A stretch of 64,000 nt of DNA from Candidatus Woesearchaeota archaeon (GTDB lineage Archaea; Nanobdellota; Nanobdellia; Pacearchaeales; GW2011-AR1), in NCBI GenBank assembly GCA_964409005.1, contig CAYPBR010000001.1:18383-82382 (forward strand), given 5' to 3'. The position numbers and the translations under genes were made by a program. Positions 35,359 to 61,781 of the stretch are shown piece after piece. Each line of letters starts with the position of its first letter. The first letter of the stretch is position 1. The notes under the pieces were generated by a model that saw only the letters and a list, made by a program, of their open reading frames with translations, searched no databases and had not been told where the DNA came from.

Positions 35359-35370
35359 TTTTTTATTCCT

Positions 35371-38549: not shown

Positions 38550-39074
38550 TTATTTTGGATTATTATGTATCGTTGTAACTTTTAATATTTTTCCTCTTTC
38601 TTTCAAATTATCTTCCCACCATAAAGGCCAAAGATTATCTAAAGCCCAGCACTTTTTAAATTCAGGATCGTTAACGCTTTTATATGAAAAGCTTGAAATA
38701 GGTTTTCTATGATGAACTTCCCATAATCCATAATTCTCTATTATCATTCCCGGAAGAAATCTTGAAGTTAAAGTTTCTACAAATTCTTCAAACGTATATC
38801 CTAATATTTCACAGTAATGTTGACTAAATTCCTTTTTATCCTTAAGAGATTGAGACATAGCAGTTATCATATTTTTACTCAATTTAAACATAGGATCATT
38901 TTTTCTTCTTTTCCTCATATATCGCTTATAATATTCTTTACCTTTTCCAAATTGATAATATTCATGCATACAATCCCTACACCAAGTACCATATCCATCT
39001 CTTTGAAATTTATTTTTATTAAATTTGTTTATCGGTCTTATCTTACCGCATTTACTACATTTTTTCTTTACCAT
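38550..39074 (-). CDS. HNH endonuclease (paralog of 23480..24034)
   Basis: 'CSKCGK...KNKFQRDGYGTWCRDCMHEYY' and 'EVHHRKPISSF' and 'LWPLWWEDNLKERGK' are shared with the paralog. Confidence 0.65.
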   Translation of the reverse strand: MVKKKCSKCGKIRPINKFNKNKFQRDGYGTWCRDCMHEYYQFGKGKEYYKRYMRKRRKNDPMFKLSKNMITAMSQSLKDKKEFSQHYCEILGYTFEEFVETLTSRFLPGMIIENYGLWEVHHRKPISSFSYKSVNDPEFKKCWALDNLWPLWWEDNLKERGKILKVTTIHNNPK

Positions 39075-39924: not shown

Positions 39925-40134
39925 TTATCTTTCTGTAATATTGACTTGCAACAACTTTTCGCTATTTTTAGATGTAGCGTGACTTGCAGCTAAAGCTCTA
40001 TTTATCCCATTTACTACTTCATTTAAAACAACACCCTCTAAAACAATATCAACACCTACATTTGAACTTTTTATAACACCTACTCTCTGAACTCGTCTTA
40101 TTTTAAAACTAATTATTTCCATTTTATTCCTCAT
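39925..40134 (-). CDS. hypothetical protein (69 aa)
   Basis: Minus-strand ORF. Confidence 0.4.
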   Translation of the reverse strand: MRNKMEIISFKIRRVQRVGVIKSSNVGVDIVLEGVVLNEVVNGINRALAASHATSKNSEKLLQVNITER

Positions 40135-41366: not shown

Positions 41367-41633
41367 TCATTTTATCTCATTCATTCTTTTCTCAAAAAGA
41401 CCTTCATCCTTTTTTGCCCGATTTAAAAGCATATCAAAAATCTTTTTATCTTTTGCACATATAACTAAATAAGCCTCTCTATCAGCAAGTAGTTCTTTCA
41501 TACCTCTTATTAAGATAGGAGATTCTTCTGTACCTATCATATAAATTCTTGTTTTATTATTCTTATCGTTCCGAGTTAATTCTATCTTACTAACCAAATC
41601 TTTTATCTCTTTAATCCTTTTCGAACTAATCAT
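41367..41633 (-). CDS. hypothetical protein (88 aa)
   Basis: Minus-strand ORF. Confidence 0.4.
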   Translation of the reverse strand: MISSKRIKEIKDLVSKIELTRNDKNNKTRIYMIGTEESPILIRGMKELLADREAYLVICAKDKKIFDMLLNRAKKDEGLFEKRMNEIK

Positions 41634-43018
41634 TTTTTTCTCCTCACTTTTATTTTTTGTTTCTCTGAAAGACTTTTAGGCTTTCTTTGCAAACTGCCTT
41701 CCGATTCCTGTCTATACTCATCATCAAGACACATTATATCAAAATTAGGTCGTAATATAACTGGATCAATTACTTCTAAATCTCTCATTTTAATTGACTG
41801 TAATCTCATAATATTTTCAAACTCATCATCTTTATCTTGTACTAACCCAACTACCATATTAGCTACTTCAACTATACCTCGTCCATATTTTACATGCTTC
41901 TTTTTTAATATACTTAATCCTTCAGCTTCATCAGTTAATTGGTTGCCTGTCCATACTGCTATTCCTTCATCTTGAAAATCTGTTGCAACTTCTTTTAAAT
42001 TCCATGCAATTTCAACTTGAGATTCCCAACTACGAGCACTTCCTAAATTAGAATTGTTAGGTCTCATAATATTAAGATAATCTGCAACGATCAAATCAAT
42101 TTTTTGACCATGTTGATCTTGTATTCGATCTGCTTCATTCTCCATTTCCGCTACTGTACTACTTCTTGGCAATGATACTATTTCAAAAAAGTTTTTTTTA
42201 GTTTTTCTATATTTTTGTATACCTTTTTCCCACACTAATAATTGTTTATCTGTAAACTTACCTAATCTAAAATTTGTATATTTTAATCTCATCAATCTTG
42301 AATCTGCTCTAAAGCCTACTTGTTCTTTTGACATTTCATAAGAAAAATAAGCTACATTAAACCCGTTATCCCATGCATATAATCCAAAATTCTCAAGTCC
42401 GATTGACTTTCCCATTCCAGATTCACCTATAAGAATTCCTATTTCACCTTTCATTAATCCACCGGAAGAATCATCAAATTTTTTAATTCCAGTTGGTATA
42501 CCTACGCTTGGTTGCTCCATTCTCGTTTTTATAATTGCTTTCCGTTCTTCATAATCTTTTAAATACTCACCTGTATAAATTCTTTTTCTTGTTATATCCA
42601 TTGACGATATTTGTCTAGCAATTTTTTTAACGCCTTCAATATCTTCTTTATCGACACACTCAAGCATATCCTCAGTTCTTTCAACTGAAAATCTAAGATA
42701 AAATAACTTATTTATTTTTTTAGTCATTGTAACAATATTTTTTGAAGAGATATTATCAATTCGACATTTAAACAATTTAATTATATATGGATTTACTAAC
42801 TCAATCTTTTTTACTCTTTCTTGTATTAATTCTCGAAACATATCTTTTGGAAATGTTGTTCGGTGTGTTTGTACTATATCAAAAAACAGTTTATAAGCCT
42901 TAATGGAAAATAAATCACGTCTTAAATTATCACACAACTTATAATCTTTTCTAACCAAATAAGAAATTATTCTTAATTCAAGTACAGTATCTCTAAATTG
43001 ATCATTTGTATCTGTCAA
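41630..43018 (-). CDS. DnaB-family replicative helicase
   Basis: RecA-like C-terminal domain with Walker A 'IGESGMGKSIGL' and Walker B 'DLIVADYLNIM'. The N-terminal region is DnaB-like. Confidence 0.7.
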   Translation of the reverse strand: MTDTNDQFRDTVLELRIISYLVRKDYKLCDNLRRDLFSIKAYKLFFDIVQTHRTTFPKDMFRELIQERVKKIELVNPYIIKLFKCRIDNISSKNIVTMTKKINKLFYLRFSVERTEDMLECVDKEDIEGVKKIARQISSMDITRKRIYTGEYLKDYEERKAIIKTRMEQPSVGIPTGIKKFDDSSGGLMKGEIGILIGESGMGKSIGLENFGLYAWDNGFNVAYFSYEMSKEQVGFRADSRLMRLKYTNFRLGKFTDKQLLVWEKGIQKYRKTKKNFFEIVSLPRSSTVAEMENEADRIQDQHGQKIDLIVADYLNIMRPNNSNLGSARSWESQVEIAWNLKEVATDFQDEGIAVWTGNQLTDEAEGLSILKKKHVKYGRGIVEVANMVVGLVQDKDDEFENIMRLQSIKMRDLEVIDPVILRPNFDIMCLDDEYRQESEGSLQRKPKSLSEKQKIKVRRKK

Positions 43019-44555: not shown

Positions 44556-44903
44556 TTATTTTTGTTCTTCTATAGAAAGAAGTGATTTATCATATTTATT
44601 TAAAAAACTCGTATCCATTAATCTAAAAAAAGATATTTCTTTAGCGAGAATAAAAGCAACGTATTTTTCTTCAATATCCCTATAATCAAAATCTGAATCC
44701 TTATCATCATCTAAAAACTTTCTTAAAAGCAAAGCCATCCCAGGAAACGGAGTTGCTTCAATTTTAACTAAATTAAAATCAAATAAAATTTCATTCACAT
44801 TGGTTTGTTGCTCTTGAGGATAATTTTTAAGAATATTGCTTTTAAGAATTACATCGTTTTTTAAATGAATTTCTATTATAATATTATTATCTAAAAATGA
44901 CAT
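44556..44903 (-). CDS. hypothetical protein (115 aa)
   Basis: Minus-strand ORF. Confidence 0.4.
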   Translation of the reverse strand: MSFLDNNIIIEIHLKNDVILKSNILKNYPQEQQTNVNEILFDFNLVKIEATPFPGMALLLRKFLDDDKDSDFDYRDIEEKYVAFILAKEISFFRLMDTSFLNKYDKSLLSIEEQK

Positions 44904-44921: not shown

Positions 44922-44954
44922 ATATATAAACCCACGAAAACGCAAATCGTCCAC
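44922..44954 (-). promoter_or_regulatory. conserved intergenic motif M2 (GTGGACGATTTGCGTTTTCGTGGGTTTATATAT)
   Basis: Second copy of the motif, upstream of 44556..44903. Confidence 0.4.
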
Positions 44955-44993
44955 AAAAAAATAAACCCGACCATATTTCAGGTCGGGTTAAAA

Positions 44994-46483: not shown

Positions 46484-47386
46484 TTAAAGTCCGAATCGCT
46501 CACTGATCTGCCGGGAAAGGTCATTACGTCTTTCTTCACTAATGACATTATTGTGACTTAATGTATTAGTGAATGTATTCAGTAAATCCCATGAAGTCAT
46601 TTTCCTGGTCATCTCAAGTTCAACAGCACCTTCATTATCATTAAACTTTACAAACTTGTGATGTTCAAGATAATCCAATGCCTCATCCTGCATAAATCCC
46701 GGCACATCGTTCAAGTGCTCCTGTAATACAACAGGATTAACTTGTTGTTTTGAAAGAGCCACGATTTGCGGAAGAACCTTTCTATCAAAGTTAGCAAACT
46801 TTTCCATAAAACGTTCAACCATCTGTTGAATGTCAAGATTCTTTGAATGACGCTTTCTTTCAGAATAGAGCATTTCATTTACAGTTGCTCCATTTGTACA
46901 GATCAGTCTCAATATGTATGCACTGATCTCATATTTGATTGACCTGTCATAAGAATTCGTAATCTTAAATCCCGGTGCAATAACATCACCGACTTTAGGA
47001 TTTTCAACAGCGCATATACCAAGTTCCATTTCTTGTTTAAATCTGAACTCAGCATACATTCTCGCACCACCTCCTGACATTCTCATATTCACAGGTTCAA
47101 CTTCCGGCAATCCGTTTTTCTTGAAGGTGTCAATAACATTATAAACTGCTTCTTTGTGAGAAACAAGCTTATATTCTCTTGACACTACTCCAAGATTAAT
47201 ACCAGTCTTAGCATTATAAACGTTGTCAAAACCAGTATCATTCCCCTGTGAGTTAAACGACTCTTCCCTTTCAACTGGAAAGTTAAAAGCTTTAAGCTGT
47301 TCGGGTTTAAAAATTGTTTTAGTACTCATAGAGTACCTCCTTAAAAAGATTTTTGAATTGATATAACTTAATTCAACAGGAAACAC
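46484..47386 (-). CDS. phage/plasmid-associated protein (280-300 aa). The likely real start is 'MSTKTIFK'. It may belong to a DUF932-type family, but that is uncertain
   Basis: Noticeably higher GC than the flanking genes; no catalytic motif recognised. Confidence 0.45.
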   Translation of the reverse strand: MFPVELSYINSKIFLRRYSMSTKTIFKPEQLKAFNFPVEREESFNSQGNDTGFDNVYNAKTGINLGVVSREYKLVSHKEAVYNVIDTFKKNGLPEVEPVNMRMSGGGARMYAEFRFKQEMELGICAVENPKVGDVIAPGFKITNSYDRSIKYEISAYILRLICTNGATVNEMLYSERKRHSKNLDIQQMVERFMEKFANFDRKVLPQIVALSKQQVNPVVLQEHLNDVPGFMQDEALDYLEHHKFVKFNDNEGAVELEMTRKMTSWDLLNTFTNTLSHNNVISEERRNDLSRQISERFGL

Positions 47387-49433: not shown

Positions 49434-49661
49434 CTAATTCTTGCGGTAAATATTTATGCCGACATTGAAGTCAGCAACCTTTACGTTACCGCGAGTTGAA
49501 GCAAGAACCATTGATTTTCCTGATCCACTCAACGTTCCCTTTCCGCCCAAGTTAATTTCCATTTTGAGCTTCTTTGTTTTTGTATCATACTCGTACTTAA
49601 TCTCATCTGTTAATTTCTCCATCTTACTACCTCCGCATTTAATTTTACTTTTTTCTCTCAT
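49434..49661 (-). CDS. hypothetical protein (75 aa)
   Basis: Preceded by promoter-like motif copy P1. Confidence 0.45.
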   Translation of the reverse strand: MREKSKIKCGGSKMEKLTDEIKYEYDTKTKKLKMEINLGGKGTLSGSGKSMVLASTRGNVKVADFNVGINIYRKN

Positions 49662-49692
49662 TAAGTATATTACGTAGTTACGTAACTTATGA
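49655..49692 (-). promoter_or_regulatory. phage-specific promoter-like motif, copy P1
   Basis: Minus-strand TCATAAGTTACGTAACTACGTAATATACTTAATGAGAG. Confidence 0.45.
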
Positions 49693-49734
49693 TTAATTCA
49701 GCAAGGGAGCCTCTTACGAAGCTCCTATGCTCAA

Positions 49735-49980
49735 TTAAAGATGCTCAAGGTATCTTGTTTTTCCACAATACTCACATGACAATCCTTTATCTGATATTCC
49801 ACTACACCAATGACATTTCATTTTCTGCGGTCTTATATCATCAATAACTTTTTCAACCATGTTCTGCATTATTCGCATACCACTTTTAGATATGCTTTTA
49901 ATTGGAGTAGTATTGAATTGATCTTTAAAAAGATAATCAGTTTCAACTTCAACTGTCATATTCTCAATTGCCTTGATCAT
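49735..49980 (-). CDS. hypothetical protein with a CxxC...CxxC motif (81 aa)
   Basis: 'CHWCSG...CEYCGK'. Confidence 0.4.
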   Translation of the reverse strand: MIKAIENMTVEVETDYLFKDQFNTTPIKSISKSGMRIMQNMVEKVIDDIRPQKMKCHWCSGISDKGLSCEYCGKTRYLEHL

Positions 49981-50135
49981 GTCAGCCTACTGCCAATTAA
50001 CATGTCCAAATTTTGATATGTTGTGGATGTAAATACTTGATGCATTTGCTTTGATTTTAATCTTCATTTTGTTACCTCCGTCTTAGGATTGCGTCGGATC
50101 AAAGGAAAAGCGTTTTCACCTTGATCCGGTTAAAA

Positions 50136-50468
50136 TTAAATAGTTGGTAGTCCAAGATAGTTATCGTCGCTCTCAAACCACTTTTTGAGTTTGGCGCACA
50201 TCTTTACAGATGCTTCATTTCTTAAATCGTACCAACCATCTTTGTCCAGTTCAGCATACTTCTTTGCAACTTCAACTATTGTTCTCCAAAAGCTCTGTTG
50301 TAAAGTTCTATGCTGATGAGTGATTGCATCGAAGAAATATTTAACGTGTTTTTCATAAGAAAAGTTATTAATCTCATTAAATAGCTGATCGACAATTTTT
50401 CTCATTGATTCACGTTCAGTTCTTTCTCTCATTGCATCTTCCATTTTTTCTTCTTCTGCTGGACTCAT
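50136..50468 (-). CDS. hypothetical protein (110 aa)
   Basis: Minus-strand ORF. Confidence 0.4.
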   Translation of the reverse strand: MSPAEEEKMEDAMRERTERESMRKIVDQLFNEINNFSYEKHVKYFFDAITHQHRTLQQSFWRTIVEVAKKYAELDKDGWYDLRNEASVKMCAKLKKWFESDDNYLGLPTI

Positions 50469-50534
50469 TTTACTACCTCCTTAAAGGATTTTTTATTTCT
50501 AAGATTGCAAGGGAGTCAATTGACTCCCTTTTGT

Positions 50535-50738
50535 TTAGCAAGATGTATTCAACTGTTCTTTAGTAGCGTAAAAAATTGCACAACTAACTTCAACTTCAGC
50601 TTTTGTCAATGAGCTAATAGTTGACAAGTTTGCTCTTGAGTTGGGTATACTTTCTTTTACTTTAATAAGGTCTTCCCTTGCTCTAAGTAATCTATCTTGA
50701 ACTGTCATTATGCTACCTCCTAAAGTTTTATATTTCAT
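50535..50738 (-). CDS. hypothetical protein (67 aa)
   Basis: Preceded by the terminator plus promoter-like motif copy P2. Confidence 0.45.
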   Translation of the reverse strand: MKYKTLGGSIMTVQDRLLRAREDLIKVKESIPNSRANLSTISSLTKAEVEVSCAIFYATKEQLNTSC

Positions 50739-50741
50739 TCT

Positions 50742-50779
50742 CCCTCACTAAATATATTACGTAACGCCGTAACTTATGA
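50742..50779 (-). promoter_or_regulatory. phage-specific promoter-like motif, copy P2
   Basis: Minus-strand TCATAAGTTACGGCGTTACGTAATATATTTAGTGAGGG. Confidence 0.45.
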
Positions 50780-50817
50780 TAAAGTACATTTCTATATATA
50801 TATGCCTTAACTTTTAG

Positions 50818-50850
50818 TTAAAAAAAACAGGGATCGTTAAATCCCTGTTT
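50818..50850 (-). terminator. rho-independent terminator (CAGGGATTTAACGATCCCTG followed by T8 on the minus strand)
   Basis: GC-rich stem followed by a U-run, read on the minus strand. Confidence 0.6.
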
Positions 50851-50855
50851 CGTGT

Positions 50856-51110
50856 TTAATATGTAAATTTTGCATCTTTTGTCATTGACCACAACAAGGC
50901 ATCAGCATTAATTATTCCAACTCTGTTGTCATTAAGATATATACTAATCTCTTTTCCTACCAAGGACTTTGGTGTCCTATCGTTTATAAGATTAATAACA
51001 TCTTTTGTGATCTTTAACTCGCTCCTTTCCCTTATCTTATAGGTAAAGTTAAGTGCGTTTAAAGCTATACCTGTTTTTTCGGCATCGCCTTCACTCATTG
51101 TTCTCACCAC
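50856..51110 (-). CDS. hypothetical protein (84 aa)
   Basis: Minus-strand ORF. Confidence 0.4.
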   Translation of the reverse strand: MVRTMSEGDAEKTGIALNALNFTYKIRERSELKITKDVINLINDRTPKSLVGKEISIYLNDNRVGIINADALLWSMTKDAKFTY

Positions 51111-51134
51111 CTTTCATTATAAGATTGCTTTTAA

Positions 51135-51180
51135 AAAAGAAGGAAGGGAAGGCCTTTTCCGGAAAAGGCCTTTTATCTTT
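51135..51180 (-). terminator. bidirectional intrinsic terminator (GGCCTTTTCCGGAAAAGGCC with T-runs on both sides)
   Basis: Perfect 8-bp GC-rich stem. TTTTATCTTT follows on the plus strand; TTCCCTTCCTTCTTTTTT follows on the minus strand. Confidence 0.6.
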
Positions 51181-51440
51181 ATAGTGGGTTTCAGTTAGTT
51201 GATATTTTCAATCCACTAGGGATTAATTATAAACCTCCAAACCTATCGGAAGTACTCTCATAAGAGCCTCGGTCTACGGATAAAACCGCTTCCTTCCCGA
51301 GCTGTCACCCGGACTAACCTACATCAGTCTTTCCTGATAGCCAGATTATCTCGAAAACTTAGTGTCAAGTCCCTTCCTTCAGTCGTACGACTTCTTATGT
51401 TACTGCTCCGATACCTTAGCGGATTCAGAATAACGAAGCA
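51181..51440 (-). ncRNA. candidate structured non-coding RNA, about 260 nt, GC-enriched, bounded by two terminators
   Basis: No ORF on either strand. Markedly higher GC than the surroundings. Multiple nested inverted repeats (TACTGCT...AGCAGTA; AGTCGTACGACT; CTTCC...GGAAG). Confidence 0.3.
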
Positions 51441-51443
51441 GTA

Positions 51444-51477
51444 GCATAAAAAGCGGAATATATTTCAACTCCGCTTC
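51444..51477 (-). terminator. rho-independent terminator (GCGGAGTTGAAATATATTCCGC followed by TTTTTAT on the minus strand)
   Basis: Stem-loop plus U-run directly after the stop of the 51487..51912 gene. Confidence 0.6.
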
Positions 51478-51486
51478 TCACGACAG

Positions 51487-51912
51487 TCATTTTACCAGGC
51501 TTATTTTCTTCTTTCCAGTTTTCTTTTTGGCAGTAACCGTGATCGTTTTCTTCCGTGTACCATTGGTTGCGCCAGAAGGAATGTCTCTCATGTCCAATTT
51601 ACCGAGTTCAACTGAAACAAGACCGGCATTCGTTTTGCGGGGAATATCAGGATTCATACTCTCAAGCTTGTCAAGAATCTGTTTTCTTGTCTTCCCAGCA
51701 CTTGCCATCTTGCGAATGACTCCAGTCTTTCCGCCTTTTCCATACTGATTATCAACAGTATGGACAGCAACTTTCTTTTCCGACGTTGTCTTCTTTACAA
51801 CGGGTTTTTTTGAAGTTGCTTTCTTTGTTGCTACTTTCTTTTTTACTACTGTCTTTGCTTTTGCCATTACTGGCCTCCTTAGAGTTTTTTTTATGAGGCT
51901 TTTTTTCCTCAC
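51487..51912 (-). CDS. histone H1-like lysine-rich DNA-binding protein (paralogous core with 30181..30762)
   Basis: 'AKAKTVVKKKVATKKATSKKPVVKK...'. Central 'GGKTGVIRKMASAGKTRKQILDKLESM' aligns with 'GGKSYSQVAREVLTKTDGNRKKATAKLKEL'. Confidence 0.55.
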   Translation of the reverse strand: MRKKSLIKKTLRRPVMAKAKTVVKKKVATKKATSKKPVVKKTTSEKKVAVHTVDNQYGKGGKTGVIRKMASAGKTRKQILDKLESMNPDIPRKTNAGLVSVELGKLDMRDIPSGATNGTRKKTITVTAKKKTGKKKISLVK

Positions 51913-51943
51913 TTATTTTATTATGTAGTGACGTAACTTATGA
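51907..51943 (-). promoter_or_regulatory. phage-specific promoter-like motif, copy P3
   Basis: Minus-strand TCATAAGTTACGTCACTACATAATAAAATAAGTGAGG. Lies 30-45 nt upstream of the ATG of 51487..51912. Confidence 0.45.
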
Positions 51944-51964
51944 CTTTTCACTACATAATAAAAT

Positions 51965-52060
51965 AGTCGCTGCTTTTTAAGAGCAAGGCTTTAAATTATT
52001 TTGTGTTTCAACGGTAATGTCTACTGACCGTTATCTTCTAAAGTAGCTAAAGCAGCGACT
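51965..52060 (-). other. extended stem-loop of about 95 nt (AGTCGCTGCTTT...AAAGCAGCGACT with inner AACGGT...ACCGTT); candidate terminator or small structured RNA
   Basis: Long outer stem with a nested inner hairpin; TTTTATTATG follows on the minus strand. Confidence 0.4.
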
Positions 52061-52067
52061 ACTTAAT

Positions 52068-52307
52068 TTACGCTTCCACAAAAGGTACTTTGAATAAATT
52101 GAGAAATATTTTATTCAACGAAACACGACCAATTACTTCGCTGTTCAATACTACTGCTACACTAGTCTTTGTTAGAGACTTTTCTTCTTCTTTCATCATA
52201 GACATGAGTTCTTTAGCAGTAAAATGATTCATCAATTCACTTAGCGAAGTAAAATGATAAAACTTACCATTTTGTGAGAACTGTACTCGGTATCTAATAT
52301 CTTCCAT
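52068..52307 (-). CDS. hypothetical protein (79 aa)
   Basis: Preceded by the terminator plus promoter-like motif copy P4. Confidence 0.45.
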   Translation of the reverse strand: MEDIRYRVQFSQNGKFYHFTSLSELMNHFTAKELMSMMKEEEKSLTKTSVAVVLNSEVIGRVSLNKIFLNLFKVPFVEA

Positions 52308-52332
52308 AATACACTCCCTAAATAGTTTATTC

Positions 52333-52370
52333 CCCTCACTTATATTATTGTGTAACGCCGTAACTTATGA
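52333..52370 (-). promoter_or_regulatory. phage-specific promoter-like motif, copy P4
   Basis: Minus-strand TCATAAGTTACGGCGTTACACAATAATATAAGTGAGGG, directly after the terminator and before the RBS. Confidence 0.45.
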
Positions 52371-52377: not shown

Positions 52378-52410
52378 AAAAAAAAGAGGCTAGTTTAAAC
52401 CTAGCCTCTT
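52378..52410 (-). terminator. rho-independent terminator (GAGGCTAGGTTTAAACTAGCCTC followed by T8)
   Basis: Read on the minus strand, downstream of the 52613..54430 gene. Confidence 0.6.
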
Positions 52411-52579
52411 AAAGCTCCCTAGAATATTCTATTTATATTTTTTCGCGCTCTTCACGCCAATATTTAGAACATTAGAACCACCCCCTAGTTTACTCACGGG
52501 TACTCATCCAATTACGTTCTGAAAGGGTTATCCCTTCCCCACACAATATAAAATTATTTAAAAACATTAAACTATACAC

Positions 52580-52612
52580 CTATAATAAACCCATCAAATC
52601 TTTATTTGTCCA
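52580..52612 (-). promoter_or_regulatory. conserved intergenic motif M3 (GTGGACAAATAAAGATTTGATGGGTTTATTATA)
   Basis: Third, more divergent copy, just after the stop of the sigma-like gene. Confidence 0.3.
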
Positions 52613-54430
52613 CTATTTTTTTTTAAAACCTAATAATGGTTGTTGCATTTCACTGGTATCGATTATTTGATCTATTTTTGATTTAGGTTTATAGTTACCA
52701 ATCAAACTTGAAAGATTTAACATTGTTTGTTCTATTATTTTATAAATTGAAATCCAGTATATCAACAAACCTACATCAGACCATTCTTTTTCCTGTTTTC
52801 CAGATTTTACAAAATCTTCCATTTCTCTTTTAAATTTTTCATCTTCACCAAGTTTGATTAATAATTTTATTTCTCTTCTATTAACATCGCCAGCGCTCCA
52901 CTTCTTCTGTGATCCTTTTCTTTTTTCATATTGTGTTAAGAAATTTGCTACTTCACCGGGGGCCCATCCTTGAGCATACCTTCTAAGTGAAGCGGGAGAA
53001 TCTTCATCTATAAATAAACCAAATCTTCTCGTCAAAATTTCTCTATCAATAGGATTTTTAAAGACTCTATTTAAAGATTGTTTGACTCCACTTTTCACTA
53101 CTGCTTTTTGAGCTTCAACCCACGGATCAATTCTATAATGACCAAATGTTTCTATCTCCTCATCATTAAGTATACTTTGCATAGTTGTTGCCGTATTGCT
53201 CTTCGGATCAGCAATTATTTTCTGAAGTGATTCCATTTTTTTACTTTGACTTTTTGCATTTCTTACTTTTTCAAGTGTCCACGGATAAGCAATGAAAGTT
53301 TTGTTACCTTTAATATTCGCAAGACTTTTACGTTTAGATTCTAATGTTTCGAGAATTTCAGCATCGGAAGGTATTGCTTTATCATGTGCTTCTTTATATT
53401 CATCAAGCGTATCTTTAAAGAACCACAAGTACATTTGATTTTTAGCGGAAGCCTTTAAATGACCACCAGCACCACTTCCCACAGCAAGAGCCGCCGCCAA
53501 ATCAGCTTTAAGAAATGAAAGCACATAAGTTTTAAAAGTCGCTCTTTTATCTTTCGGTTTATTTATTAAAAATGATTGAGCCGCTTTCATCACTACAACA
53601 GCGGCTTCCATTTTTAAATCTTCTTGTTCAAATCCAAATTTTCTTGCATCCCATCCACCTTTAAGACGAGTGTTATAATACTTACCTGCAATTTTTTCAA
53701 ACATATCCCAGTTTGCTCTTACTAATTGCTGAGCTTGATCTTTGATGCCTTCACTAATAAGCCTTGTGTTCATTGCTCTAACTTCTATTTCTGTTTGATC
53801 AGCTTTTTTCTTTTGAGTTAATTGCTTTTTTGTCCAACTTGACTTTGCTTTTCTTTTTACATTTTCTCTTGGTACGCCTTTTTTAATATAAGTTTTACTA
53901 TTAGATATAAATTCAATATCAAGTTGTGTAGGCGCTTGAGTAGTAGTCCCATTTGTTGCAATAACTTTACCAGTATAACTTTCTCCACCAAAATTAAATG
54001 ATACAGAAGTTCCAATCTTTATTCTTTCGGCAGTAAAAATTTTTTGACCTTTACCTCCTGCCATTCCTAATTTTTGTTTTTCAAGAAATTTCTTCTTTTG
54101 CTTTCGAGTTTCAAAATATTTATGTTTTCCTTCTTGATAAAAGTCTTCAATTTTTACTTTTTTCTTAGTTATGACAGGTTTTTTCTTAACTGTGAGCTTA
54201 GGCGTCGTTTTCTTTACAACAGGCTTCTTTTCAATAACAAGTTTTTTAGTAACAGGTTTTTTTACAACTAACTCTTTTTTAGCAATAGACTTTTTCTTTA
54301 TAGGTTTTTTTACAACTAATTTCTTCTTCGGTTCGTCATAAGTATAATACCACTTACCTTTTATCTTTTTCTTGCTTTTATATTTTGATCCTGCTACTGA
54401 ACTTCCTTTAACTGGCATGATTACCTCCAT
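52613..54430 (-). CDS. lysine-rich N-terminal domain protein with a sigma-70 region-4-like motif; candidate phage sigma or transcription factor
   Basis: N-terminal KKP(V/I)KKK repeats. 'RATFKTYVLSFLKADL' is region-2.3/2.4-like. 'DREILTRRFGLFIDEDSPASLRRYAQ' resembles region 4.2 ('ERE.L.LRFGL'). Confidence 0.4.
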   Translation of the reverse strand: MEVIMPVKGSSVAGSKYKSKKKIKGKWYYTYDEPKKKLVVKKPIKKKSIAKKELVVKKPVTKKLVIEKKPVVKKTTPKLTVKKKPVITKKKVKIEDFYQEGKHKYFETRKQKKKFLEKQKLGMAGGKGQKIFTAERIKIGTSVSFNFGGESYTGKVIATNGTTTQAPTQLDIEFISNSKTYIKKGVPRENVKRKAKSSWTKKQLTQKKKADQTEIEVRAMNTRLISEGIKDQAQQLVRANWDMFEKIAGKYYNTRLKGGWDARKFGFEQEDLKMEAAVVVMKAAQSFLINKPKDKRATFKTYVLSFLKADLAAALAVGSGAGGHLKASAKNQMYLWFFKDTLDEYKEAHDKAIPSDAEILETLESKRKSLANIKGNKTFIAYPWTLEKVRNAKSQSKKMESLQKIIADPKSNTATTMQSILNDEEIETFGHYRIDPWVEAQKAVVKSGVKQSLNRVFKNPIDREILTRRFGLFIDEDSPASLRRYAQGWAPGEVANFLTQYEKRKGSQKKWSAGDVNRREIKLLIKLGEDEKFKREMEDFVKSGKQEKEWSDVGLLIYWISIYKIIEQTMLNLSSLIGNYKPKSKIDQIIDTSEMQQPLLGFKKK

Positions 54431-54489
54431 TATAAATCCACCCCTCCCGTCAGGGATGGGACGAAAGGGGTGGTGAGAAAGAAAAAAAT

Positions 54490-54933
54490 TTATTTAGATA
54501 TTAATGCTACAGTTAATCCCCCACCAAGAAAAGACACCACTCCTATAATAACTCCTGTTAATATATTTTTACGTCGATTTTCTTTTTTATCATCTACTTG
54601 AAAATTTTCAATTACTGTATCTTCAAGTTCAAATTCATAACGAAGATGAGCAATTTCTATACGAACAGGTTCTTCATATGATATATAAAGATCACTATCT
54701 GCAAGAATATAAGTTGCAGGCGGCAATATTATTTCAGCAGAAGCTTTCTCAATATAATCATACATTTGAATGAAAACTATTAACTGCTCCAAACTTACAG
54801 ACCTTAACCATATTTCTACTTCTTCATCCGTTAACGGTTTGTAATCATTTGGATAAATTGAGACTATCGAGAGCATTATCATCAATAGGCTTAACATTAC
54901 GACGATCAGTGACTTCATGTTTTCCCTCCGCAA
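54490..54933 (-). CDS. membrane protein with N- and C-terminal TM segments (147 aa)
   Basis: 'LIVVMLSLLMIMLSIVSI' and 'ILTGVIIGVVSFLGGGLTVALI'. Overlaps the upstream gene by 89 nt. Confidence 0.4.
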   Translation of the reverse strand: MRRENMKSLIVVMLSLLMIMLSIVSIYPNDYKPLTDEEVEIWLRSVSLEQLIVFIQMYDYIEKASAEIILPPATYILADSDLYISYEEPVRIEIAHLRYEFELEDTVIENFQVDDKKENRRKNILTGVIIGVVSFLGGGLTVALISK

Positions 54934-55216
54934 TTATAATTTTTCCTTCTACTATTCCAGCCGATTTGACGTCTTTTGCTTTTATTTGTTTTCCCTTCTT
55001 ATTAATTGGCAATTTAACCGGAATATACCTTGTACCATTCTTTACATGAATAATTGTATCATCATTAACATCCGCTATAAAAGCTATTGGCTTTTCTACT
55101 TTCCCTATAATGACTTTTCTTATCTTTAAAGTTGCTATAGTCCCAGCAATAGCAACTGCAATAAATCCTATAACTTTTATTACGACCTTCCAATTCTTTT
55201 TTATCCATTTCCACAT
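54845..55216 (-). CDS. N-terminally anchored membrane protein (123 aa)
   Basis: 'VVIKVIGFIAVAIAGTIATL' TM helix. Confidence 0.4.
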   Translation of the reverse strand: MWKWIKKNWKVVIKVIGFIAVAIAGTIATLKIRKVIIGKVEKPIAFIADVNDDTIIHVKNGTRYIPVKLPINKKGKQIKAKDVKSAGIVEGKIIIAEGKHEVTDRRNVKPIDDNALDSLNLSK

Positions 55217-55221
55217 TTTTT

Positions 55222-55959
55222 TTATCCCTTTTCAATTAATTTTATTTCTTTTCTACAATTAGCTAAAAAATCTTCAACTTCCTTAATAACAAATTTACTA
55301 CCTATTTCAACTTGATACTCATTATTTATAACAGGATTTTCTTCTATATGATCTATAGCTTCCCATATTCCCTCTGTTATACCAGTTTCTCTTTGTTTAA
55401 ACTGTTGAAGAGCTTTTTTCATAACAAACCATTTCCAGTATAATGGTTCTTCTTTTTGATATTGTTCATTAGTAGGTGCATTGCCATTATTTTGTTTTAT
55501 AAGAAATTGTCTACACTTCTCAAAATGTTCAACCATACAAGCTTGATTTGTCATATTAATATCTTCTGAATCGATTGCATTTTGTAAACGTTTTATCTCA
55601 ATATCCAAATATCTTTTTTCTTCTATTGCACTTTTACGTTCTGGCATTGAAACTGTAACAGTTATGGTATCAACATTTTTATTTTCTTTCATATCGATAT
55701 ATTCATTTAATCTACGTGTTTTTTCTTCTTTATCCAATAACATTCTACGAAGTTCAAATAAAGCAAATTGATACTGTCTCATAAGAAAATGAAAATTATG
55801 AGCTATAAAATTACCCTCTTTTCTAATTGTAAATTTTTCAATGTCGAATTCTGATTTTAATTGCCCCATTTCAATAAATTGATTTTTAAGATTGTTAAAT
55901 TTCTCATCAACACCCTTTAATGAGATTGACTTAATAAAATCTATCATACTTTCTTTCAT
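55222..55959 (-). CDS. hypothetical protein (245 aa)
   Basis: Lies between the tail module and the membrane proteins. Confidence 0.45.
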   Translation of the reverse strand: MKESMIDFIKSISLKGVDEKFNNLKNQFIEMGQLKSEFDIEKFTIRKEGNFIAHNFHFLMRQYQFALFELRRMLLDKEEKTRRLNEYIDMKENKNVDTITVTVSMPERKSAIEEKRYLDIEIKRLQNAIDSEDINMTNQACMVEHFEKCRQFLIKQNNGNAPTNEQYQKEEPLYWKWFVMKKALQQFKQRETGITEGIWEAIDHIEENPVINNEYQVEIGSKFVIKEVEDFLANCRKEIKLIEKG

Positions 55960-55984
55960 TTTTTTTCTCCCTATTATTTTTAAA

Positions 55985-57052
55985 TTATGCTCCAGAAGTA
56001 TTCTCTATAGCATAAGGTAAATCGCCTTTATCGACTGCATTACCTATTGTTAAACTAGTATCCATATACTGAATAACGTTAATTCCTCCCTCTAATGTAC
56101 TTCCCCCGCTTAAAAAGCCTAAATTATTTGAGTTATAAGAACTACTATTACCTGCTCTCCAAAGCGATACAGTTAAATTACCTCTATCAATTGCATTACC
56201 AGTAGTAGTTAACATATTTATATAATCTATTACATTATATCTTTCTCCACCTCCACACATAAAGCCATAAGTAGAGCCTGATACTCCTACGACAGACCAA
56301 CCAGCAATAGTTAAATTCCCTTTATCTAATGCGTTACCAGTTGTTGTTGTAACATTTATATAATCAATATAATTTCTTCTATTGCCGCTATAATATCCAC
56401 CACATATGAATCCATAAGTAGAACTATTCACTCCACCACATAAATAAGTTATAGCTCGTGATAAATTTCCTTTATCAACTGCATTTCCTGAAAGAATCGA
56501 TGTATCAATATAATCTATTACATTATAATAAACACTACCAGGATCGTTTTCTCCTCCTGCCCAAAAACCATATTGAGGCCCATGAACAGAACTAAGTGAA
56601 TGTCTTGCTACAGTTAAGTTACCTCTATCAATTGCATTACCAGTAGTAAGCGTATTATCTATATAATCTATTACATTATAAAGTTGATTAGGCAAAACTC
56701 CTAAGGGGTCTATATAATGACCACCACCAAAAAAATCATATAATCCTCCAGCAAGACCAGCTAACAAATAAACTAATCTTGTTAAGTTACCTCTATCAAC
56801 TCCATTACCTGTAGTAGTATTTACATTAAAATAATTAATTTCACTAACACATGTAAGAGCACCACCAATAACACGTTTTCCACCAGCATTATAAGCGTAA
56901 CGATTTGTAGTTACTGCCATTGGCTCCCAAATACCGGAAACTTTAACCCAAATATTTTTTAACTCTTCCCAGTTTCCTGATACTCGTGTAAATGATCTTA
57001 TCATTCTTTCCCATACACCACTTTTACGAGACCAAATATTAAAACCAAACAT
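55985..57052 (-). CDS. tail fibre / receptor-binding protein built from six tandem repeats of about 45 aa
   Basis: Repeats of 'YNVIDYID..(T/L)TTGNA(I/V)D(R/K)GNLT' are visible in the translation. Confidence 0.5.
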   Translation of the reverse strand: MFGFNIWSRKSGVWERMIRSFTRVSGNWEELKNIWVKVSGIWEPMAVTTNRYAYNAGGKRVIGGALTCVSEINYFNVNTTTGNGVDRGNLTRLVYLLAGLAGGLYDFFGGGHYIDPLGVLPNQLYNVIDYIDNTLTTGNAIDRGNLTVARHSLSSVHGPQYGFWAGGENDPGSVYYNVIDYIDTSILSGNAVDKGNLSRAITYLCGGVNSSTYGFICGGYYSGNRRNYIDYINVTTTTGNALDKGNLTIAGWSVVGVSGSTYGFMCGGGERYNVIDYINMLTTTGNAIDRGNLTVSLWRAGNSSSYNSNNLGFLSGGSTLEGGINVIQYMDTSLTIGNAVDKGDLPYAIENTSGA

Positions 57053-57061
57053 ATAAGCTCC

Positions 57062-58168
57062 TTAATATTTAAACCACATATCTCCGTCCGCACCACCGGA
57101 GGGATCATTGATAGAAACAGTTTTTTTACTACTACCCCACATTTCAGAATTTAAATTAACACAAAGTGATCCATTTGCCAACCCTACATTTCCCGAAGCA
57201 TTACCGGCATCCGCTCCATCAACTTTATCTGCATTAAAAGAATTTCCGGTTCCTTGACGAGCTCCATGCACAACAGCCGAATTAGTATCTATTGCTTTGT
57301 GAGTATTTATATTATCAGCATTGCCTTTAATATTCTCAACTGTCCTTCCAGCTCCTGCTATTTCTTGCAACGCATTTTCAACCTCTGTCGCTGTAATTCT
57401 CCCACCTGCGTCAGCAATTGCCATATCTATAGCTTTAACTTGACTTGCTCCAAGTCCCCAGTCTATATCTTCCGTTTTTATTGTATCGTTAGAATGACTA
57501 CCATCTTCATTATGACTTATTCTAAATAAGGTTTTAAAATCTGAAACACTTCCCATTCTAAATGTTGCTGCTGTTTCTGTTGTCCAGTTAGCAGTTACTT
57601 CAGTATCATATCCACTTGTACAATTTTCTATATCAGCATCCAAAATAGAAGTAGATTCTCCGGTATCAACTGTTATTTCTGCTATTTTTACCCACCCGGC
57701 TGTATGAGTAGGTGCAACTCCAGCCCCCACTATACCATTAATAACCTGCGCTTCTAACTCATATCTTTTTTTTGTATATATATTCTGGTAAGAAATATCC
57801 TTAGTAACAGGATTTTTAAAAGCTCTTTGTTGCGAATCATAATCTGTTTCAAGCACTCTCACTTCCAGTGTATCAATTCTCGCTGAAGCTCCTCCGTTAG
57901 TTATTGAAATCGGCCCAAATAAACTTCCTGTATGAGCAACTTTACCTGTACTCCGACAATAACCCAACCCTATAGTAAAGTCTACATTCATTGAAGGCGT
58001 ACCACGTTGTTGAACATTTAATCCTGCAACTATAATATCGTTTGTAGCGTGACTAAAAAGCTCTTCAAAAATTGTAACTAAATTACTATATTCCTGTGTT
58101 TCAATAAAATTATAATCTTCGCTTTTAGCTATCTCATTACCTTCAAATCTAGCTGTTAAAATATCCAC
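57062..58168 (-). CDS. tail-fibre-like structural protein (368 aa)
   Basis: G/S/T/N-rich beta-rich composition; position within the fibre cluster. Confidence 0.4.
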   Translation of the reverse strand: MDILTARFEGNEIAKSEDYNFIETQEYSNLVTIFEELFSHATNDIIVAGLNVQQRGTPSMNVDFTIGLGYCRSTGKVAHTGSLFGPISITNGGASARIDTLEVRVLETDYDSQQRAFKNPVTKDISYQNIYTKKRYELEAQVINGIVGAGVAPTHTAGWVKIAEITVDTGESTSILDADIENCTSGYDTEVTANWTTETAATFRMGSVSDFKTLFRISHNEDGSHSNDTIKTEDIDWGLGASQVKAIDMAIADAGGRITATEVENALQEIAGAGRTVENIKGNADNINTHKAIDTNSAVVHGARQGTGNSFNADKVDGADAGNASGNVGLANGSLCVNLNSEMWGSSKKTVSINDPSGGADGDMWFKY

Positions 58169-58177
58169 TTTATTCTC

Positions 58178-60697
58178 CTATCCAGAAATTATTTCTACTA
58201 TACCCTTAACACCTGCTGTTTTTACTAACTCTAAAAGGTCTGAATAAACTGTTGAAACATATCCACCACCCGGCCCGGCAATATAATCACTACTATAAAA
58301 AGAAGCTTGTTCTATATCTTGATCAGCACTAGCTTCAACTATTCTTATATTGTCTATCTGTATTTCTGAATTTAAAACAGCGGCCGATTCTATAAATACA
58401 GAAATAGCAAATCCAGTAGTAGCGGCATTCATAGTCCACACAATTTTTAGTCTTTCATAAGCGGAAGCGGCTTGTACTAAAATTTCTGTTGTATTCCACG
58501 CACTACTATAATATTCGTGTATTATAATTTTGTGTTCATTTGTAACTTCGTCAGCTTTTGCCCGACATTCAAAAACATAATCCGTACCTGCTACCAGTCC
58601 ATGCATATTAGATGTAGCTTTATCATCTGTTAAAAAAGTTTCAGCATCACCACCAGCGGCGGCTGTATCTTTATTAAGTTTCCAACTATACGTACCCATA
58701 TAAGGATCAGTATCTCTAGCCCATGTTTGACTTCCTGGAATAGGTTCGTAAGGAGTTGTTTCGTTAAATAACATGGGTGAAGTTGTACTTTCACATTCAC
58801 TATTATCCATCAAACTATCTTCATCACCAGGCCATGTACTTAAATAACCACCGCCAAAACTCCCTACAACTTTTATTAAAACCTTAATAGAAGGATATAA
58901 CTGCCAAATACCAAATTTAAGTAAATCAATACGAAATTTATAAGCTGTACCTGACGCTCCAGCATTAGACAAAGTAAAGGTAAGGTCTCTTGTATCTGCA
59001 TTACTCAAATAAACGCCTGCATATACATATCCAAGACCAACAGTTTCAAAATATTTTCCAGTTGAGCCTGATTGCCAAGTGTTATCAGAAAAATTATAAT
59101 AATAACTATCACCTGATCTTTGCACCTGAAAATAAATAAGGTTATCATCTGGGCACAATTCATTATCTTCATAAAAAAATGATATTTTATAATCACCTGC
59201 AACTACGGAACTTATTGTTTGATCTAAAGAGGCATTACTATTTGAACTGTCTATTTGATATTCAGGTGCCCTTAATCCAGAAAATCCTAACATCCTTCTA
59301 GCATCTCCTATCTTTCCAGTTTGTGAAACAGCCTTAACTCGTTCAATACCACTTGAAATACCGTATATATCTGAAGTGCCAAATGGACTTTCAAGCTGTG
59401 TCCATCCTGTCATACCATCTGTTGAAGTAGCTATTTGACCATCTTTTCCAACATCTATCCATTTCCCATCTATACTGTCATAAACTATATCACTTATAAT
59501 ATCGGTACCAAAAGTACTCGTTCTTTGTGTCCACGTACTACCATCCGGCGAAGTTATAAGAATACCATTATAACCTACAACTACCCATAAAGCAGAACCG
59601 CCTGTCAATTGATTATGGGCTACAGCATAAAGATCATCCTCAGTTGGAGTAGTTTTTAAAGAACTCCACACTTTACCATCTACTGAAGTAATCAATTTAC
59701 CCCTACTTCCAACAGCCACCCACAAATCAGTACCGTTATACCCAACGCTATAAATACCAGAAATGCCAAACACAGTACTTACTTGTGTCCAATTTATACT
59801 ATCGGAAGAATAATTAATTTTTCCGGATGACGAACCCATAACCCACAATCCTTCTGTACCTATTTTTTTATTATGATCAATACTAAAATGATTAAGAAAT
59901 CCTGGTATTGATCTAGCAGTCCAAGTTTCACCATCTGTTGATGTAATACAAGTATTAATCATTCCAACTGCTACCCACATACTATGTCCATTATAACCTA
60001 TAGCTTTTAGTTGTTGAGTAGTACCACTTATTTGAAGTATCCACTCTACTCCATCCGTTGAAGTAGCTATTTTACCTAAATCTGCTACTGCTATCCAAAA
60101 AGAAGAATTATCATTTTCTATACCATTAATAGATGAATAATTAAAAGGATTTGATACTTGAAGCCACCAGGCATCAACTACATTAACTATAATAGATGAG
60201 CCTGTTTCTGTCTTATTCCAATTAGTAAAAACATCACCTGATCCAATTTCAAAATCACTATTTAATAAAAGATTAGTTTCAATATAATTTTCTATTATAT
60301 AAATATCATCCTTATCAAAATAATAACCAAAAACATCTTTAAGGCACCATTTTGTCATCCAACTCTTATTGCCATTCCTTAATATAAGAGCATCAAATCT
60401 ATTCTTTAAGTCATCGTCTTCTTCGTCAAATATTCTTTGCAGTCCTAAAAAAAAGTATGCAAGTTTCTCTAAAAATTCGTCAGCAGCGAAATTAATATTT
60501 AAAGAATCGATTACAAAGTTAATATAACCTCTTAAAAACTCTAGTTCGTTAGCAATAGCACCCGAATTATAGTCCGAACTCTGCACTATAGGAATATTTG
60601 AAGCATAAATATCTTTACCAAAAATTGCCTCATATTCCTCACTAGTTTTATTTATAGGTATAAGAGCATTAATTTGATCAATTATTCTTGTACTCAT
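58178..60697 (-). CDS. large tail fibre / receptor-binding protein with an Asp-box (BNR) beta-propeller domain
   Basis: At least five 'S-x-D-G-x-(T)-W' Asp-box repeats (ATSTDGVEW, ITSTDGETW, ITSVDGKVW, ITSPDGSTW, ATSTDGMTGW). 839 aa. Confidence 0.55.
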   Translation of the reverse strand: MSTRIIDQINALIPINKTSEEYEAIFGKDIYASNIPIVQSSDYNSGAIANELEFLRGYINFVIDSLNINFAADEFLEKLAYFFLGLQRIFDEEDDDLKNRFDALILRNGNKSWMTKWCLKDVFGYYFDKDDIYIIENYIETNLLLNSDFEIGSGDVFTNWNKTETGSSIIVNVVDAWWLQVSNPFNYSSINGIENDNSSFWIAVADLGKIATSTDGVEWILQISGTTQQLKAIGYNGHSMWVAVGMINTCITSTDGETWTARSIPGFLNHFSIDHNKKIGTEGLWVMGSSSGKINYSSDSINWTQVSTVFGISGIYSVGYNGTDLWVAVGSRGKLITSVDGKVWSSLKTTPTEDDLYAVAHNQLTGGSALWVVVGYNGILITSPDGSTWTQRTSTFGTDIISDIVYDSIDGKWIDVGKDGQIATSTDGMTGWTQLESPFGTSDIYGISSGIERVKAVSQTGKIGDARRMLGFSGLRAPEYQIDSSNSNASLDQTISSVVAGDYKISFFYEDNELCPDDNLIYFQVQRSGDSYYYNFSDNTWQSGSTGKYFETVGLGYVYAGVYLSNADTRDLTFTLSNAGASGTAYKFRIDLLKFGIWQLYPSIKVLIKVVGSFGGGYLSTWPGDEDSLMDNSECESTTSPMLFNETTPYEPIPGSQTWARDTDPYMGTYSWKLNKDTAAAGGDAETFLTDDKATSNMHGLVAGTDYVFECRAKADEVTNEHKIIIHEYYSSAWNTTEILVQAASAYERLKIVWTMNAATTGFAISVFIESAAVLNSEIQIDNIRIVEASADQDIEQASFYSSDYIAGPGGGYVSTVYSDLLELVKTAGVKGIVEIISG

Positions 60698-60706
60698 TAT
60701 GTTATC

Positions 60707-61780: not shown

Positions 61781-61781
61781 T

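Follow-up and report, generated by a model that had tools for sequence, protein, structure and literature searches.

Which form of RNA polymerase reads a promoter-like repeat that recurs in front of small genes in an uncultivated phage? The question is raised by a 64,000-nt stretch of contig CAYPBR010000001.1 (assembly GCA_964409005.1, positions 18,383 to 82,382), here called the window, in which a preliminary description had noted the repeat and genes for two sigma-like proteins. We refer to the repeat as class A. That phages can encode sigma factors with promoters of their own is textbook knowledge, and the few studied cases come from cultured phages. Our answer, held with moderate confidence and built on comparison of related sequences, is that class A is probably a phage-specific promoter class read by host core RNA polymerase (RNAP) together with a phage sigma, the best candidate being a 601-aa protein (the large sigma). 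The motif copies, their conservation, orientation and rigid geometry, a bound on the transcript start and the folds of both sigma-like proteins are established in this analysis.

A 21-nt element in front of small genes

The 64 kb contain exactly four copies of the 12-mer TCATAAGTTACG, always on the minus strand (52370..52359, 51943..51932, 50779..50768 and 49692..49681), and all 100 dinucleotide-preserving shuffles lack it (expected count 0). Allowing up to two mismatches gives eight occurrences where 6.3 are expected, i.e., no excess, so the signal resides in the exact copies. The preliminary description had spoken of four copies of a 38-nt motif with a gapped consensus. The four exact copies are real, but the conserved core is 21 nt long, the window holds five copies of it, and the four align without gaps over about 37 nt, as TCATAAGTTACG N4 TAC N2 AATA N3 T N A N TGAG. 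The fifth, weaker copy was found with a 21-nt degenerate pattern and falls within the 3' end of the open reading frame (ORF) 38550..39074. A motif map of the whole phage genome had also been proposed; the 64 kb searched yielded four exact copies and the weaker one, and cover part of a genome of ~96 kb.

Each of the four exact copies lies directly upstream of a gene, as had been claimed: a Shine-Dalgarno sequence and start codon follow 33-46 nt downstream (from the predicted transcription start). Our gene calls behind the copies match independent calls on the same phage in another assembly. The terminators reported before copies 1 and 3 were also found, as hairpins with T-runs (Table 1), whereas a long-range stem plus ATTTTATT stands upstream of copy 2 and a hairpin without T-run upstream of copy 4. 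Copy 4 probably drives, besides the gene next to it, ~17 small genes as far as a terminator at 44989..44964. In a scan for the sigma-70 consensus, none of the four sites was among the sigma-70-like matches.

Metagenomes hold 20 homologues of the large sigma (searched as a 605-codon ORF), at 38-83% identity. We retrieved the DNA around nine large-sigma homologues, and the site counts below refer to the window plus eight related metagenomic loci (L numbers). Where contigs suffice, gene order is kept: baseplate and tail fibres, lysis-type small genes, the large sigma, the small-gene cluster, DUF932, then AAA/DnaB/primase. The small-gene cluster varies in content and orientation, and in relatives it is frequently on the opposite strand. 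Scanning with a weight matrix derived from the first copies yields 57 sites over threshold, and the shuffle control (the first five sequences only, at a lower threshold) gives an expectation of ~0.3. An independent fixed pattern, AAGTTnnG-N5-ACAnA[AT]TA, matches 40 times in 193 kb against 0.035 expected. Searching IMG/VR for the exact pattern gives one chance-level match per contig, with more than one only in contigs of this phage group.

These sites are consistently placed with respect to genes. A Shine-Dalgarno sequence and start codon follow on the same strand in 55 of the 57, and a T-run precedes at no more than 45 nt in 43. Class A sites stand upstream of DUF932 and replication genes in L001, L004, L005 and L101, and in the first three of these they form divergent pairs at the border between the leftward small-gene cluster and the rightward DUF932-replication genes. 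Positions 6-7 of the box depend on lineage (mostly AC, with AG in L004, CT in L096 and a mixture in L102), while AAGTT, G8 and ACAnAATA are constant across lineages. The proposal of a phage-specific promoter class is supported, the motif being a conserved, oriented, gene-proximal, post-terminator element in nine related phage lineages. Our literature search found no description of this motif.

One relative, L098 (BPTK01000156.1, 8.3 kb), carries seven class A sites and a large-sigma homologue and is deposited in a Candidatus Heimdallarchaeota metagenome-assembled genome. Because the gene content of the phage group is bacterial in type, this is likely a mis-binned contig. An archaeal TATA/BRE promoter, which the deposition brings to mind, was rejected because RecA, DnaB, DnaG, PolIII-alpha, the peptidoglycan-binding domain and the transglycosylase are bacterial and the phage has two sigma genes.

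Two RNA features accompany the class A cassettes of the window. Behind copy 2, downstream of the Lys-rich gene, lies a relatively GC-rich noncoding stretch of ~350 nt (51140..51490, minus strand) whose minimum free energy is -121 kcal/mol (z -5.2; each of 100 shuffles folds less well). It would be transcribed from copy 2, closes with a terminator and has no Rfam match, which makes it a candidate for a structured phage RNA. From 50528 to 45490 (minus strand), the gaps that separate small genes repeatedly contain a hairpin GGGAGTCAATCGACTCCC followed by TTGCAATCTTA, directly before Shine-Dalgarno sequences (e.g., 50500-50528, 49077-49105, 48825-48853, 48619-48647 and 45490-45518). There are at least five close copies against none expected, with looser variants in most gaps to ~45200, and the hairpin has no U-tract. 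It may be a signal for RNA processing, stability or attenuation in the long operon behind copy 4.

Anatomy of the element and host-type promoters

We number positions from the first A of AAGTT (position 1) and computed information content on 33 sites. The conserved core is AAGTTnnG-N5-ACAnA(A/T)TA: positions 1-6 and 8 show little or no variation, conservation is partial at G10 and A11, and A14, C15, A16, A18, A19, T20 and A21 are nearly invariant. Positions upstream carry <1 bit each and there is no conservation past position 21. The two half-elements are separated by the same number of bases in every site.

Of the 55 sites with a Shine-Dalgarno sequence, 21 have it beginning at position 29-31 and none before 29-30, so the 5' end of the mRNA must lie at or before about position 28. 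With this bound, the -10 hexamer is CAwAAT (positions 15-20), in which A16 is found in 31/33 sites, A18 in 32/33, A19 in 33/33 and T20 in 32/33. We propose that these correspond to A-11, A-9, A-8 and T-7, respectively; A-11 and T-7 are the two bases that sigma-70-family proteins flip out. Transcription would then start some 6-7 nt beyond the hexamer, near position 27, where A is the most frequent base and AGTGAG is often next, and AAGTTnnG would occupy about -26..-19, one helical turn nearer to the -10 than a normal -35 box and at a fixed distance. A hexamer with conserved A-11 and T-7, 5-9 nt before the start, defines a sigma-70-type -10; the class A hexamer agrees with this definition, with C rather than T at -12 (C in 32/33 sites, preceded by A at -13 in 32/33). 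No TTGACA-like -35 stands 16-18 nt upstream of it: -35-like bases shift register, with (A/T)TCA at 15 nt in the window, a TTGTCT-like hexamer at 16 nt in L001 and L005, and a larger distance in L102. The earlier remark that sigma-70 spacing is not matched holds for the -35 and spacer, but a sigma-70-style -10 is present.

Two other ways of dividing the element were tried and rejected. If the -10 were TAnnnN (positions 20-25), with the box at -31..-24, T-7 would not be conserved and the start would lie within the Shine-Dalgarno sequence in 21 sites. If AAGTTnnG were a true -35 with the -10 farther downstream, the start would likewise fall inside the Shine-Dalgarno sequence.

The same genomes also contain promoters of host type. 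L003 has TTTACA-17-TATAAT before its replication operon (~15390..15430). In the window, a second repeat (class B), GTGGACGATTTnCnTTTTCrTGGGTTTATATAT, occurs at 44922..44954 and 30805..30837 (minus strand; two copies against 0 expected), each time after a terminator or T-run and before a gene (44903..44556, which begins the replication block, and 30762..30181). The second copy includes the host-type TTTACA-16-TATAGT. The class B motif is absent from the retrieved parts of relatives, except that its spacer TTCrTGGGwT is shared with the L003 promoter. Canonical promoters in these genomes imply that the host sigma probably has the usual preferences and that class A is a separate class, and the invariant C at -12 with A at -13 also argues that class A is not of host type.

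These observations bear on another account, which we consider improbable, in which host sigma-A reads class A as promoters with a weak or absent -35 and AAGTTnnG is a separate site for a phage or host activator (MotA/AsiA-like) or a repressor. The -10 does retain A-11, A-9, A-8 and T-7, the TTGTCT-like hexamer of L001 and L005 is 16 nt upstream of it, strong conservation within the spacer is operator-like, and small HTH (helix-turn-helix) genes lie beside the cluster. Moreover, such cassettes (terminator, promoter, small gene) characterise early regions, which unmodified host polymerase transcribes. However, a host sigma-A would be expected to use T at -12 at least sometimes, which 32/33 sites with C at -12 and as many with A at -13 do not reflect. 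The -35-like bases drift in register among lineages at less than one bit each, there is no TG extended -10, the half-sites are non-palindromic in most copies, and the canonical promoters of the same genomes look quite different.

A second account dispenses with sigma altogether: the element would be the promoter of a phage RNAP without sigma (T7-like, single-subunit), or an RNA-level or recombination element at cassette borders. Its continuous block of ~21-30 nt ending in ...ATA and then AGTGAGAG resembles T7, SP6 and T3 promoters; TTAGGTGAC is common to L004 and the SP6 promoter, and ACTATAGTGAGAGA occurs in L101. We noted this resemblance and set the T7-/SP6-like candidate aside: the 30 window proteins scanned (64 of the ~96 kb of the genome) include no polymerase gene or RNA polymerase domain, the large unannotated proteins sit among size-variable tail-fibre genes, and two genes for sigmas imply that the phage works through the host core enzyme. 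Repeated terminator-promoter units can be recombination points (e.g., the PeSL elements of T4), and cluster gene content and orientation do differ among relatives. However, the element lies upstream of the inferred 5' end and hence outside the RNA, and a promoter would be expected to face genes strictly and to keep a fixed distance from the earliest Shine-Dalgarno sequence, as the element does. We regard this whole group of explanations as very improbable.

Two sigma-like proteins and how class A may be read

The preliminary description's two sigma-like proteins both stand, on different evidence: the small one through family matches to Sigma70_r2, Sigma70_r4_2 and Sigma70_ECF, the large one by fold. 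In domain terms the large protein appears to have three sigma domains plus an extension and the small protein has two.

The large sigma reads, in order, as a Lys-rich tail, a Tudor/KOW-like barrel, sigma-2, an insertion and putative sigma-3 and sigma-4 domains. In an AlphaFold model made on the homologue alignment, the predicted local distance difference test (pLDDT) score is 70-90 in the helical core and 50-90 in the sigma-3/sigma-4 part. All of the top 50 Foldseek matches of this model are sigma factors (SigA, SigS, Sig32), over 300-340 columns, with E down to 3e-4 and probability ~1, and the sigma-2 fold is among the domains recovered. Using hhalign, residues 230-472 align with regions 2.1 to 4.1 of Bacillus subtilis SigA, including DREIL..RFGL. 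The FxTY of region 2.3 is retained, and the equivalents of Escherichia coli W433, Q437, T440 and R441 are S, A, A and A. Q437 and T440 (E. coli numbering) are the SigA residues that read T-12, so alanines in their place fit a different base at -12. After region 2.4 comes the insertion, an invariant run of 30 residues (GSGAGGHLKAS..YLWFFKDT).

Two points make this protein the best candidate reader. By position, its gene closes the tail/lysis block and, wherever the flank is readable, comes last before the promoter cluster. By type, a -10 with A-11 and T-7 is what the sigma-2 domains of group 1-3 sigmas read. Class A heads short cassettes (terminator, promoter, small gene) between the tail/lysis and replication modules and, in most relatives, the DUF932/replication operon, and it would be fired by host core RNAP carrying the large sigma. 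That transcription starts at class A, and that this sigma is the one used, we infer.

Several points weigh against this assignment. The link between either sigma-like protein and the motif consists of neighbourhood and co-occurrence only. The large protein resembles sigma factors by fold alone: sequence searches of Pfam, PHROG and PDB gave no match, not even with a profile of 21 sequences (the best Pfam sigma value among the 21 homologues is E 0.13, for Sigma70_r3, short of a Pfam sigma-70 assignment), hhalign pairs it with SigA only weakly (E 0.066) and the model averages a pLDDT of just 63.7. The N-terminal part, used as a protein query, also gave no match. Sigma-4 on the beta flap reaches -35, not -22, so in its usual seat it cannot contact the -26..-19 box, and AAGTTnnG needs another part or factor as its reader; the insertion after region 2.4, sigma-3 or the N-terminal barrel are possible. 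Only three residues covary with motif positions 6-7, all in the N-terminal part and outside sigma-2, -3 and -4; they are fixed in the AAGTTACG lineages and different in L004 and L096, which with nine sequences is a hint only. The start site is bounded by sequence logic only, and what was read amounts to 64 of ~96 kb of the window genome and ~20 kb per relative. Finally, the large sigma appears to be co-transcribed with late genes, which is awkward for a factor that should switch on early-looking cassettes.

The last point follows from the gene's surroundings. No promoter is visible directly before it in the lineages examined: in L003 and L004 it follows the preceding gene without a gap, and in the window, L100, L001, L005 and L102 nothing but a CU-rich tract, a GC hairpin and the Shine-Dalgarno sequence separates the two genes. 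It therefore seems to share its transcript with late genes, perhaps at low abundance.

The CU-rich tract, CTTTCCTTTC (within 54438..54500, minus strand), resembles an anti-Shine-Dalgarno sequence, and tract and hairpin also occur at L001 ~9900-10000, L005 ~9730-9810, L100 ~5020-5095 and L102 ~5060-5150. The tract could pair with the large sigma's Shine-Dalgarno sequence and so limit translation, or limit transcriptional read-through. Two further observations concern this gene. Its N-terminal tail (54100..54300) shares the identical nonapeptide KKPVVKKTT with the Lys-rich product of the copy 2 gene (51487..51867). Between its stop codon and the terminator at 52410..52384 there is an ORF-free gap of ~200 nt (52400..52612, minus strand), into which a sigma-70-like TTGATA-17-TAAAAT points from within the 3' end of the sigma gene (52765..52737); the gap may encode a small RNA.

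The small sigma (180 aa) belongs to a clearly sigma-like family, and it could be the reader of class A instead. Host sigma-A would first transcribe the replication block from class B, class A would then serve middle genes, and the fifth copy, 41 nt before the 180-aa start, would boost the small sigma's own gene. The protein alone falls below every Pfam threshold and has few close homologues (an exhaustive profile search gave 16), yet among 18 family members Sigma70_r2 matches 3 (best E 2.3e-11), Sigma70_r4_2 matches 8 and Sigma70_ECF matches 3. The family profile matches SigH, FliA and, marginally (E 1.6e-3), the extracytoplasmic function (ECF) sigma chain of phage phiEco32 (9m7y_F). The top fold matches of the model (pLDDT 78) are sigma factors, and the family has sigma-2 and sigma-4 without sigma-3. 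ECF sigmas typically activate their own genes, the replication block of both the window and L003 has host-type promoters in front of it, and the small phage sigmas SPO1 gp28, SPO1 gp34 and T4 gp55 read A/T-rich -10 boxes.

Against this assignment, class A stands upstream of the replication genes of L001, L004, L005 and L101. Wherever that operon also includes the small sigma gene, as in L003 (the homologue follows primase), the small sigma would be required for its own synthesis and so cannot initiate class A, though it could reinforce it. The L003 homologue has no class A copy before it, the -10 with its A-11/T-7 analogues and 8-nt span resembles that of group 1-3 rather than ECF sigmas, and the large sigma, always beside the cluster, would be left without a role. 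We judge it improbable that the small sigma reads class A.

With the large sigma as the preferred reader, a timing puzzle arises: its gene is in the late block, whereas class A stands on early-type cassettes and, in relatives, on replication genes. Possible solutions are an embedded promoter that escapes recognition, cassettes that are not early, or a sigma made late and carried into the next cell. The last would make the large sigma a virion-delivered initiation factor. We raise this because its gene closes the late operon without a promoter of its own and because the protein has a Lys-rich tail and a Tudor/KOW-like barrel. Scant late synthesis, perhaps throttled by the CU-tract and hairpin, would be followed by packaging with the DNA and injection; the injected sigma would capture host core polymerase and fire class A before any phage protein is made, with host sigma-A reading class B and the small sigma reading late promoters. 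We consider virion delivery unlikely. Our literature search found no injected sigma factor and we know of none; if true, this would be the first, and a cheaper device than the injected polymerases of N4, phiKZ and crAss-like phages.

The surrounding phage and known systems

The window has a GC content of 31%, and every sizeable ORF lies on the minus strand. Its genes (Table 1) are those of what we take to be a lytic-looking myovirus infecting a bacterium, with the class A cluster occupying the small-gene stretch between the tail/lysis block and the replication block. The source samples look like sediment and further environmental metagenomes, and the host is probably a low-GC bacterium that makes strong use of Shine-Dalgarno sequences. 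The INPHARED phage set holds no close relative, and searches of it for near-identical DNA or protein gave nothing for the motif region or either sigma-like protein. Scanning the window for Rfam families and tRNAs gave no match.

Table 1. Coordinates of class A copies, sigma-like genes and other features of the window (positions count from its first nucleotide)
Feature	Position	Strand	Remarks
Class A copy 1	52346..52366	minus	21-nt core AAGTTACGGCGTTACACAATA; predicted +1 near 52340; the 38-mer first described here spans 52370..52333
Target of copy 1	52307..52068	minus	79-aa gene
Class A copy 2	51919..51939	minus	AAGTTACGTCACTACATAATA; predicted +1 near 51913
Target of copy 2	51867..51487	minus	Lys-rich 126-aa gene, with structured noncoding stretch behind it
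Class A copy 3	50755..50775	minus	AAGTTACGGCGTTACGTAATA; predicted +1 near 50749
Target of copy 3	50708..50535	minus	57-aa gene
Class A copy 4	49668..49688	minus	AAGTTACGTAACTACGTAATA; predicted +1 near 49662
Target of copy 4	49622..49434	minus	
Class A copy 5 (weaker)	38561..38581	minus	AAGTTACAACGATACATAATA; 1 mismatch to 21-nt core; predicted +1 near 38555
Intrinsic-terminator-like hairpin and T-run	52384..52410	minus	directly before copy 1
Intrinsic-terminator-like hairpin and T-run	50824..50851	minus	45 nt before copy 3
Large sigma, divergent sigma-70-family protein	52613..54418	minus	601 aa from ATG at 54418; listed ORF starts at 54430
GC-rich hairpin after CU-rich tract	54438..54473	minus	directly before large sigma Shine-Dalgarno; conserved in five lineages
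Small sigma, two domains (sigma-2 and sigma-4, ECF-like)	37972..38514	minus	180 aa; replication block, after primase
Baseplate and tail genes	63467..55000	minus	Pfam/PHROG scans
DUF932 gene	47386..46484	minus	Pfam/PHROG scans
AAA/IstB-like loader		minus	followed by DnaB; Pfam/PHROG scans
DnaB	43018..41630	minus	Pfam/PHROG scans
DnaG-type primase	41081..40131	minus	Pfam/PHROG scans
PolIII-alpha	34175..30846	minus	Pfam/PHROG scans
RecA, SbcCD, 5'-3' exonuclease genes		minus	Pfam/PHROG scans
Transglycosylase, thymidylate-synthase-like protein		minus	Pfam/PHROG scans
Large terminase	3044..1149	minus	Pfam/PHROG scans

Some genes and repeats away from the cluster deserve mention. Just upstream of the terminase gene, a 625-aa protein (4163..6040, minus strand) has a PARP catalytic (ADP-ribosyltransferase) domain (E 1.3e-16), recalling packaged ADP-ribosyltransferases, e.g., T4 Alt. 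Three consecutive genes of DNA methyltransferase type (MT-A70, N6_N4_Mtase and MTS-like; 34476..37075, minus strand) are placed between the small sigma gene and the polymerase gene. At 8683..9107, amid short ORFs only, ~12 degenerate 36-nt repeats (TGGTTTTCT...GGCTCGCT, plus strand) form an iteron-like array that could be a replication origin or packaging site. In L004, the gene after primase (21381..21575) has a weak tubulin match (PF00091) and may encode a PhuZ/TubZ-like phage tubulin.

Several features of this locus give it wider interest. The promoter class was defined purely from sequence, in phages that have not been cultivated, and the comparative evidence for it is unusually clean. Its geometry is unusual, combining a C-12 -10 with an invariant box one helical turn too close for a -35, and its candidate sigma, too divergent to be found except by structure prediction, has an extra N-terminal domain. 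Together they offer a testable pair for studying how the sigma family reads DNA outside the -35/-10 frame, as well as 21-nt parts for orthogonal transcription. That the large sigma's gene comes last in the late operon raises the further, testable idea of a virion-carried sigma.

Among known systems, the closest in kind are the sigma cascade of Bacillus phage SPO1 (gp28 for middle genes; gp33/gp34 for late genes) and phiEco32 gp36. SPO1 is a lytic myovirus whose own sigmas take the place of the host sigma and read phage-only promoter classes that depart from the host hexamers. The likeness extends to the two phage sigmas found here and to the window terminase, a distant relative (only ~23% identical) of the terminases of Bacillus, Staphylococcus and Listeria myoviruses. 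However, SPO1 sigmas are ~200 aa long and their promoters keep the -35/-10 layout with 17-18 nt between boxes, whereas here the box is at -26..-19 and the candidate sigma has 601 aa, with sigma-3 and a Tudor-like domain, lacks detectable sequence similarity to known sigmas and is encoded at the end of the late block.

The middle promoters of T4 (MotA box, AsiA/MotA) also combine a sigma-70-type -10 with a nearer box that replaces the -35. The MotA box, (a/t)(a/t)TGCTT(t/c)A, is centred near -30, whereas AAGTTnnG is centred near -22, has C at -12 downstream and does not match the MotA box. A C at -12 followed by A is found in the -10 boxes of the Bacillus sporulation sigmas F, G, E and K (CATnnTA, CATA... 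types), and T4 late promoters have TATAAATA with no upstream box. These -10 boxes are also 7-8 nt long, the T4 late box spans the same -13..-6, and CATAATA of the window fits the SigG-type CATnnTA. The -35 boxes of the sporulation promoters, and the missing upstream box of T4, are nevertheless unlike AAGTTnnG at -26..-19.

In phiEco32, the ECF-like two-domain sigma gp36, with gp79, directs host core to phage promoters (PMC12276001; PDB 9m7y). This likeness concerns the small sigma, not the large one, and the match is marginal. In P100-like Listeria phages, mapping has shown late promoters without a -35, which were assigned to a phage sigma (PMC12282133). N4 begins early transcription from non-host promoters with a virion-carried RNA polymerase (PMC4496689). 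The virion RNA polymerases of N4, phiKZ and crAss-like phages, and also T4 Alt, are parallels for the injected-sigma idea only, and what they inject is a polymerase or an ADP-ribosyltransferase, not a sigma. The logic proposed for class A is that of known phage-sigma systems; it is different from them in promoter geometry, in the size, domains and divergence of the sigma, and in the position of its gene.

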